This document shows positions 40,981 to 42,285 of a stretch of 64,000 nucleotides of DNA, in pieces. A program made the position numbers and the translations under genes. The notes below the pieces were generated by a model. That model saw only the letters and a program-made list of their open reading frames with translations. It had not been told where the DNA came from and ran no database searches. Position 1 is the first letter of the stretch; each line of letters starts with the position of its first letter. Source of the DNA: a virus; IMG/VR virus record IMGVR_UViG_3300043827_000628, positions 27,350-91,349 of that record, one strand, 5' to 3'.

Positions 40981-42285
40981 ATGGTAAACATTAAATTACA
41001 TGGTATTCTAGGAGAAGAAATAGGTCAAGACTGGAATCTTGATGTTAATAGCGTTGCAGAAGCGTTTAGAGCTATAGAAGCAAACACTCAAAAATTAACT
41101 AAAACATTAATTAAACACGCAGAAAATAATTTAAAGTACGAAATTCTAATTAATAATAGACCTATTTGGGTTGCAAAGGCGCAAGATTTACCAGAGGCAA
41201 ATAAAGATGTAAAAAAAGAACATTTTGAAATGCTTGGTAATTCAGAATTTTGTATGAATTTCGGTCATAATCTAAAAAGTATAGATGTAGTACCTGTTTT
41301 GGAAGGCGCAGGTGGTGGTGGTGGTGGTGGGGGAAATAGTTGTTTTCCAGCTGGCACAAAAATTCTAACTCCTAATGGAGAAAAAAATATAGAAAATCTT
41401 AGCATCGGAGATGAAATTTTATCTTTTGATAAAGATAAAAATGTACAAAAAGATACAATTGAAGAAGTATTTTATCATAAAAATAATAAAATTTTAAAAA
41501 TAACTTTATGGGATGGACATGTTATTAGAGCAACTCCTAATCATTGGTTTCTAAACGAGTATAATAGATTTGCTCCAATTGAAAATTTTAAAGTTGGGGA
41601 TGTTCTTATACATAAAAGTGGAGATGTATTGCCAATAGAAAAAATTGAAGAAGATGGTTTTGAAGATGCGTATAATTTCCATGTTAAAAGTAATCATACT
41701 TATATTGCTAATAATATTTTAGTCCATAATGGAGGAGGTGGTAAAGGTGGAGGAGGTGGTAAAGGTGGAATGAGTAGCGCAAAAGGAATTTTTGCAATCT
41801 TTTTAGCGATTCTTTTAATTCCATTTGGCGGACCATTATTTGGGTTGACTTTGATGCAACTAATGCCAGCAATTTTAGGATTATTAGCTCTAGGAGTATC
41901 TATGCTTTTAATGAAACCACCACCAATGGTTAGTCCGCAAACTATCGCAAATCCTTCTGCAGATTTTGAAGCTTCTCCAGAATCTGGTGGAGAACCTTCT
42001 TACACATTTAATGGTCCAGTAAATACTGTTGGTGAAGGTGGACCAATTCCTATAGGATATGGAAGATTAATAATAGGAAGTCATCAAGTATTTAGCTCTT
42101 ATGATCAATTATACAGAATTCAGTCAAGAGAAAATAGATATGGATCTGATGGCAGACCACCAACAGATGCCGGAGCAGATAATTACCCAACAAAAAGCTT
42201 TTACTTTAATCATTATGGAAGTGCAATAGATATTCAAGATTTCCAAGGAAATTCTTTATCTCAATCTTCATTACAAGGCGCATAA
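40981..42285 (+). CDS. Tail assembly protein, lambda gpI-like, containing a Hint domain
   Basis: IKLHGILG..IG...L.V.SVAEA.RA ubiquitin-like domain ending VPVLEGAG; hydrophobic segment; SYTFNGPVNT..EG.PIPIGYGR. Confidence 0.92.
   Translation: MVNIKLHGILGEEIGQDWNLDVNSVAEAFRAIEANTQKLTKTLIKHAENNLKYEILINNRPIWVAKAQDLPEANKDVKKEHFEMLGNSEFCMNFGHNLKSIDVVPVLEGAGGGGGGGGNSCFPAGTKILTPNGEKNIENLSIGDEILSFDKDKNVQKDTIEEVFYHKNNKILKITLWDGHVIRATPNHWFLNEYNRFAPIENFKVGDVLIHKSGDVLPIEKIEEDGFEDAYNFHVKSNHTYIANNILVHNGGGGKGGGGGKGGMSSAKGIFAIFLAILLIPFGGPLFGLTLMQLMPAILGLLALGVSMLLMKPPPMVSPQTIANPSADFEASPESGGEPSYTFNGPVNTVGEGGPIPIGYGRLIIGSHQVFSSYDQLYRIQSRENRYGSDGRPPTDAGADNYPTKSFYFNHYGSAIDIQDFQGNSLSQSSLQGA
41341..41730 (+). other. 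Hint / BIL-type domain in gpI (130 aa)
   Basis: CFPAGTKI...TPNHWF...YNFHV..NHTYIANNILVHN; next residue is Gly. Confidence 0.93.

Follow-up and report, generated by a model that had tools for sequence, protein, structure and literature searches.

A predicted type-A bacterial intein-like domain behind the ubiquitin-like head of a phage tail tip assembly protein

Introduction

Tail tip assembly protein I (TAPI or gpI) of lambda-type phages has been described as a ubiquitin-like (Ubl) domain followed by a glycine linker, at which a JAB enzyme was predicted to cut (Iyer, Burroughs and Aravind 2006, PMC1779556). What plugs the lambda tail tip is the C-terminal part of gpI, in three copies starting at residue 101 or 134; the N-terminal domain is not seen there (PMC11101478, PMC12617516). 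Type-A bacterial intein-like (BIL) domains, which have no nucleophile at the residue that follows them (+1), mostly cleave at both of their ends, and splicing is possible when the amine freed by Asn cyclization attacks the thioester (PMC4031507, PMC7664689). Ubl and BIL domains meet in Tetrahymena BUBL, where BIL2 lies between ubl4 and ubl5, and ubl4 is conjugated without ATP, via a Lys isopeptide, to ubl5 and to Ras (PMC8616854). Finally, the bacterial Bil antiphage defense system conjugates a Ubl to the central tail fiber (bioRxiv 10.1101/2023.09.04.556158). Here we analyze the gpI gene of a virus in which the Ubl domain is followed by a Hint domain. The gene lies in a 64,000-nucleotide stretch (the window) that corresponds to positions 27,350 to 91,349 of IMG/VR record IMGVR_UViG_3300043827_000628.

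The source record is a 91-kb provirus of about 29% G+C, part of which is the window, and the gpI studied here comes from an uncultured, low-GC siphophage. A preliminary description of this DNA suggested that gpI might activate its Ubl without E1 or E2 enzymes. The literature background that it gave, namely the Ubl and JAB partnership of TAPI, Ubl-Hint fusions in ciliates and a bacterial Ubl placed on the central tail fiber, agrees with the papers cited above. A literature search, incomplete for subscription journals, returned no report of a BIL or Hint domain in gpI or in phage tail proteins. Our analysis leads us to think it reasonably probable that the gpI Hint is a self-removing type-A BIL, in which cleavage would predominate and splicing may also occur.

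Results

The gpI gene (40981-42285 including the stop codon, + strand) encodes 434 aa, and its product matches phrog_32 ("tail assembly protein") in two separate stretches, before and after the Hint. Starting at the N terminus, gpI consists of a MoaD/ThiS-like beta-grasp (Ubl) domain ending in VPVLEGA (aa 1-110, 40981-41310), a linker (aa 111-120, 41311-41340), a type-A BIL-like mini-Hint (aa 121-250, 41341-41730), a flank that reads GGGGKG twice (41731-41766) and a structural part with the remaining linker, a pair of hydrophobic helices and the strands of TAPI-C (41767-42282), all on the + strand. The layout proposed in the preliminary description, Ubl followed by poly-Gly and Hint, is therefore correct, and it adjoins an intact JAB/NlpC-P60 gpK. 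Its finer points are correct as well: VPVLEGAG occupies aa 104-111, eight glycines run from aa 111 to 118, and Asn119 and Ser120 precede Cys121.

The N-terminal domain, modeled alone, has a pLDDT of 90. In a VIA-align search of 48,161 chains, MoaD, SAMP1, CysO and Urm1 proteins took all of the top ten places, with Z scores of 7.3-8.6 (8.6 for the MoaD-related 1v8c and 8.5 for SAMP1). Foldseek with this domain alone returned beta-grasp proteins exclusively, at weak E-values of about 0.03, so that it is the exhaustive VIA-align search that settles the fold. A beta-grasp domain, on which the proposal in the preliminary description hung, is thus what the model and both searches point to, and its conserved terminal glycine (G109) is invariant across three gpI alignments. 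In a model of whole gpI, the N-terminal domain and the Hint are confident (pLDDT >90 for aa 121-250), the linkers are disordered, and two helices at about aa 272-310 correspond to H1/H2 of lambda gpI. In phmmer, the C-terminal part hits two tail assembly proteins of solved structure, 25vf_9 (8e-8) and 9l9p_A (1e-6); lambda gpI (8iyk/9e7m) is a weak match. The Pfam search of gpI did not find the TAPI family at E <= 0.01; we assign the protein to TAPI on the basis of PHROG 32, the PDB matches and the fold. The Gly-rich linker and TAPI-C of lambda-type TAPI are both present, and so is its neighborhood, with gpK (JAB plus NlpC/P60) upstream and gpJ downstream.

The Hint itself is a 130-aa domain that begins with Cys121, carries TPNH in block B, ends in VHN (aa 248-250) and lacks an endonuclease. 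Its best Pfam match is PT-HINT (PF07591; aa 128-250, 42.9 bits against a gathering cut-off of 27.7), while a match to Hint_2 begins at aa 121. The top structural match in Foldseek is the Clostridium thermocellum BIL 2LWY (E 5.9e-12, TMt 0.88, rmsd 1.7, 33% identity), which phmmer also finds (2lwy, 4e-13), and the second is BIL2 of Tetrahymena BUBL1 (6Y75, also 6TMM; E 2.3e-11, TMt 0.78, 23% identity); the gp41-1 mini-intein is also among the best matches, and DnaB and DnaE inteins match as well. Cys1 and the terminal His-Asn are present in all 30 Hint-bearing gpI open reading frames (ORFs) of the loci we compiled, a set that includes the window gene twice, and TxxH, matched by regular expression, is present in 27 Hint-bearing cluster representatives. 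The +1 residue is Gly in all 30. The domain thus combines the sequence marks of a type-A BIL: a HINT fold of mini size, no endonuclease, Cys1, TxxH, His-Asn and no Cys, Ser or Thr at +1. It is under purifying selection, with a dN/dS of 0.14, while the Ubl and TAPI-C each have 0.18.

Outside this family, a tblastn search of gpI against 50,697 GenBank phage records found no gpI relative at E <= 1e-5. The Hint part alone matched in 12 records, in helicase/NTPase genes of Vibrio phages and in hypothetical proteins of Ruminococcus and Salicola phages (in Ruminococcus phage NatCom_3870, every annotation reads "hypothetical protein"). Separately, an unrelated 734-aa metagenomic protein from outside the window (P0112) has a Hint family in common with gpI and ends in two Hints in tandem, an unusual double cap that reads ...AHN / CFPAGT...VHN-YKS-CFIAGT...VHNKK.

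How the Hint came to lie in gpI can be read from relatives. Among the gpI proteins returned by a protein search, about 27 carry a Hint and measure 434-455 aa, and close Hint-less relatives, whose flanks are about 70% identical, have 291-299 aa. The Hint-less proteins read EGA-polyG-K-G4-K without interruption, and in the alignment the Hint falls within the poly-Gly run. We conclude that it is, to judge from this comparison, a clean insertion in the Gly/Lys linker. In a census of 80 IMG/VR loci, 28 have a Hint in gpI. In a tree of the exteins, the Hint-bearing proteins and two Hint-less groups form one clade (support 100/100), within which the Hint-bearing P0027 groups with the Hint-less L032, P0032 and P0033 (100/99). 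Since Hint-less lineages nest within the Hint-bearing clade, the domain was gained or lost on more than one occasion. A tree of the Hints themselves has three clades, the 130-aa gpI Hints, the gpJ Hints and 144-aa gpI Hints, and the gpI site therefore hosts two Hint lineages.

A profile search of 1.84 billion representatives returned 3403 gpI-like proteins, and among the best 150 of these, which were assessed for internal Hints, only the family of the window (P0021) and one other (P0184) have one. The exteins of this second gpI lineage, seen in loci L084-L090, are about 35-40% identical to window gpI, and its Hint also has 130 aa. There is no poly-Gly here: the Hint follows the Ubl tail (...EGSG, ...QGAG or ...EGAK) directly, and right after it comes a Lys that stands before the first hydrophobic helix. 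The +1 residue is this Lys, and the -1 residue is Gly or, in two loci, Lys. At the matching place, Hint-less gpI reads ...GAGPVG-K-hydrophobic. By this alignment, the Hint of the second lineage is a traceless insertion at the boundary of Ubl and TAPI-C, the point of the predicted JAB cleavage (PMC1779556). The JAMM motif of gpK is intact in these loci, and their gpJ has no Hint.

The two flanks of the Hint behave differently. On the N side, the linker of relatives varies in length and sequence, with 9-11 residues past the conserved EG(A/S), and the residue before Cys121 is Ser in the window and Gly in 26 of the 30 ORFs. On the C side there is no Ubl, and the first residues are nearly fixed: +1 to +5 read GGGGK in 29 of the 30 ORFs (GGAGK in the other), with synonymous codon variation. 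GGGGK is the flank of the 130-aa Hint lineage and GGGGGK that of the 144-aa lineage, again with varied synonymous codons, and the cluster representative P0018 has GGSGK. The window has Gly251 at +1 and Lys255 at +5. This lysine keeps a fixed distance from the Hint, yet it is ancestral to the linker: Hint-less relatives also carry linker lysines and a Gly4-Lys periodicity, which weakens the case for the +5 lysine as an acceptor specific to the Hint.

An exact 18-nt duplication behind the Hint had also been pointed out in the preliminary description, and it is there: GGAGGAGGTGGTAAAGGT occurs twice at 41731-41766 in codon register, giving GGGGKG twice (our repeat search places the pair one base earlier, at 41730-41765). 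L003, the nearest relative, has an exact 18-nt pair of its own (at about 9303-9338) that encodes the same GGGGKG repeat with different synonymous codons, and further relatives vary. We therefore rejected a functional signal in this DNA, and the duplication reads as ordinary slippage in a low-complexity linker. The differing codons of the two pairs suggest either that slippage was repeated or that the linker evolves in concert.

A second BIL-like Hint is found in gpJ, the central tail fiber (42287-47806, + strand, 1839 aa; Pfam Phage-tail_3, He_PIG and Hint; phrog_31). It spans aa 836-966 (44792-45184, + strand; flanks ...YRAT/CF...VHN/GGHAP), is 35% identical to the gpI Hint and likewise has no nucleophile at +1, where the gpJ copies have G, R or M. 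In an alignment of gpI and gpJ Hints combined, Cys1 and HN are the only invariant residues. The gpJ protein consists of an 835-aa N-terminal part (an 834-aa Ig-rich arm plus Thr835), the Hint and the gpJ core, and phrog_31 matches it solely behind the Hint; in the N-terminal part, the Pfam and PHROG searches found no Ubl and no PHROG match. Comparison with relatives shows the gpJ Hint as a clean insertion, whose presence is independent of that of the gpI Hint. Two loci, L024 (5742-10877) and L025 (9334-14297), encode arm and core as two ORFs split exactly at the position of the gpJ Hint, the N part ending in ...GDVYSCRYT and the C part starting with MGYGNLRLPRYENF..., and about ten other loci have arm and core fused without a Hint. 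Given these split genes and Hint-less fusions, both the cleaved and the joined state of gpJ are viable in nature.

The gene upstream of gpI encodes gpK (40232-40972, + strand), which consists of a Prok-JAB domain (aa 9-107) and an NlpC/P60 domain (aa 124-242) by Pfam and belongs to phrog_30. Its JAMM motif, HSH-x7-S-xx-D from aa 75 together with Glu24, is intact in the window and in all 28 Hint-bearing loci, and the catalytic columns are invariant in the gpK alignment. We thus reject the idea that the Hint replaces the JAB enzyme: gpK has not been displaced. The JAB domain is likewise kept in Hint-less phages. Some gpK homologues of the Hint-less outgroup depart from the strict HxH-x7-S-xx-D pattern, namely those of L033, L037, L041-L043, L047, L054, L055, L057, L059, L062, L063, L067, L071, L080 and L082; variant spacing or a lost JAB active site may lie behind this.

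These genes form part of a lambda-type tail-tip block, in the order M-L-K-I-J on the + strand according to ORFs, Pfam and PHROG. It starts with a gpM-like gene (37294-37848, + strand) and gpL (37858-40230, + strand, 790 aa), in which a large insertion interrupts the Phage_tail_L homology and shows a weak H-type lectin match (aa 330-377) under the Pfam cut-off. On the opposite strand of the window, a 3181-aa tape-measure-like protein (50919-60464, - strand; PhageMin_Tail) contains a glucosaminidase domain (aa 2473-2605), and a 1808-aa protein (27543-32969, - strand) with an H-type lectin domain over the cut-off (aa 1421-1481) is probably a fiber or adhesin.

Discussion

The gpI Hint has the residues of a type-A BIL, and from these residues and published BIL chemistry we infer the following course. 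Cys121 would attack the carbonyl of Ser120, and this N-S acyl shift would leave the Ubl and its linker on a thioester, after which cyclization of Asn250 would cut the chain ahead of Gly251. Because there is no Cys, Ser or Thr at +1, no branched intermediate would form. Most of the thioester would then be hydrolyzed, releasing a free Ubl, a free Hint and the C-terminal fragment that forms the plug. In a minority of molecules, the freed amine of Gly251 would instead attack the thioester and produce a gpI indistinguishable from that of Hint-less relatives. By both routes the Hint would be gone and a normal TAPI-C fragment would reach the tail tip. The role of gpK would be the same as in Hint-less relatives, and the gpJ Hint would act in this way where the decorated N-terminal arm meets the gpJ core. 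We judge it fairly probable that self-removal occurs mainly by cleavage. The preliminary description had anticipated the first step, an ATP-independent N-S acyl shift that yields a Ubl thioester: the catalytic residues are kept and the site is 120/121, but the thioester itself is predicted, and if the Hint is active it would form by the chemistry of the domain.

This course of events also fits the two Hints taken together. They mark module boundaries at which joined and separate states both occur, which is what a self-removing separator predicts and which does not depend on a Ubl. Several points nevertheless weigh on the other side. The processing chemistry is predicted from conserved residues, which are compatible with a predominance of either cleavage or splicing. 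The spacing behind the Hint is fixed more tightly than a passive linker should be, and a lysine acceptor would fit it as well. Finally, the domain persists across a clade of 63-81% identity, and two lineages occupy one site, so that it could be useful and not merely tolerated.

Among the other explanations, the one that survives best is that traceless splicing dominates, in which case the Hint would be a neutral, intein-like parasite. The amine of Gly251 would ligate the poly-Gly flanks, and full-length gpI would then be processed by gpK. Aminolysis is least hindered between two Gly residues, and most relatives have Gly at -1 and all have it at +1. Ligation by the C. thermocellum BIL needs no nucleophilic side chains, according to Aranko 2013 as cited in PMC4031507. 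Splicing would give a gpI resembling that of Hint-less relatives and would account at once for the retention of the JAB enzyme, and the polymorphism of presence and absence is intein-like. However, the type-A BILs in the literature yield cleavage products for the most part, no homing endonuclease is present that would explain the spread, gpJ Hints are followed by bulky +1 residues (Arg, Met), and relatives encode the two halves of gpJ as separate genes. Splicing as the dominant fate is accordingly possible, but we regard it as unlikely.

Less probable still is the idea at the heart of the preliminary description, a BUBL-like conjugation that dispenses with E1 and E2. The thioester of Ubl and linker would be captured by the epsilon-amine of a lysine, which could act in cis (Lys255) or in trans (on gpJ or a different tail protein), so that the Ubl becomes covalently attached during tail-tip assembly; the JAB domain of gpK would later remove it. 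The Hint would then be a one-shot, ATP-free Ubl-activating enzyme and JAB the matching deconjugase, a minimal viral Ubl cycle parallel to BUBL, which we consider a long shot. The layout, the catalytic residues and the BUBL precedent do speak for activation. In favor of conjugation, Ubl, Gly and BIL follow each other as in Tetrahymena BUBL1, whose BIL2 (6Y75) is the second-best structural match, two gpI lineages have the Hint directly behind the Ubl, the post-Hint lysine keeps its distance despite synonymous codon change, and an intact JAB enzyme adjoins in all Hint-bearing loci. Nothing, however, favors transfer to an acceptor over hydrolysis or splicing. The lysines and the Gly-Lys periodicity are ancestral and shared with Hint-less relatives, and the +1 Lys of the second lineage is the conserved Lys ahead of the hydrophobic helix in Hint-less gpI. 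Moreover, no Ubl precedes the sister Hint of gpJ, the N-extein of the window ends in Asn-Ser and not in Gly-Gly (with Lys at -1 in two loci of the second lineage), the C-extein differs from that of BUBL in not being a Ubl, and the JAB domain is kept equally in Hint-less phages. Two further suggestions of the preliminary description found no backing, since nothing indicates a deconjugase role in which gpK removes a Ubl adduct and there is no evidence for a decoy against host Ubl-conjugation defense.

That the Hint is catalytically dead and kept as a spacer or structural domain seems very improbable: Cys1, TxxH and His-Asn are kept in the gpI relatives checked, at 63-81% protein identity, Cys1 and His-Asn are invariant in the gpJ Hints, dN/dS is as low as 0.14, and Hint-less relatives show that gpI can do without the domain. 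A canonical class-1 mini-intein, which would splice through a +1 nucleophile and whose fold the gp41-1, DnaB and DnaE matches recall, is refuted by the sequence and has next to no probability left, since the +1 position holds Gly in each of the 30 gpI ORFs and G, R or M in the gpJ copies, and +1 to +4 contain no Cys, Ser or Thr, being all Gly in the window; with Gly at +1 and Cys1 and His-Asn present, a type-A BIL fits instead.

Self-removal of a type-A BIL, the reading we prefer, would make these phages a natural experiment. A clade with a predicted self-cleaving domain at the point of JAB cleavage suggests that breaking the chain, or breaking and rejoining it, is compatible with tail assembly, and the less closely related P0184 lineage does likewise. 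First, for the JAB cut behind the gpI Ubl predicted in 2006, these phages give a simple construct with which to study that step. Second, they offer a counterpart in bacterial viruses to the Ubl-BIL architecture of ciliates, so that E1-free Ubl transfer becomes directly testable outside that group. Third, compact 130-aa BILs that tolerate Gly-Gly junctions could serve protein engineering.

Compared with described systems, the gpI Hint is closest to the type-A BILs represented by 2LWY from C. thermocellum (Amitai 2003, Dassa 2004 and Aranko 2013, as cited in PMC4031507 and PMC7765530), with which it shares an endonuclease-free HINT domain of about 130 aa, Cys1, TxxH, His-Asn and the lack of a +1 nucleophile. 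The situation in a hypervariable, low-complexity region is also common to both. The differences are that its host is a phage tail-tip assembly protein and not a secreted bacterial protein, and that it is inserted exactly behind a Ubl domain. This last feature is shared with BIL2 of BUBL1 (Dassa 2004 and Chiarini 2021, as cited in PMC8616854), in which a Ubl stands directly N-terminal of a BIL-type Hint, so that a Ubl thioester arises from the acyl shift with no need for ATP. In gpI, by contrast, the C-extein is a Gly/Lys linker plus TAPI-C and not another Ubl, the Ubl is MoaD-like and not ubiquitin-like sensu stricto, an isopeptide is only hypothetical, and the protein comes from a virus of bacteria and not from a ciliate. 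PT-HINT pretoxin domains, whose family the gpI Hint matches above the gathering cut-off, have the same predicted role, autoproteolytic release of a neighboring module; no toxin module stands behind the gpI Hint, however, where the linker and TAPI-C follow and the released parts would be tail proteins. The module as a whole is that of lambda and T1, TAPI-TAPK-TAPJ (PMC1779556): the gene order is the same, gpI has a beta-grasp domain whose C-terminal Gly is conserved, then a Gly-rich linker and TAPI-C, and a JAB/NlpC-P60 enzyme is encoded next to it. What sets the window apart is a Hint in gpI at the predicted JAB cut point and a second one in gpJ.

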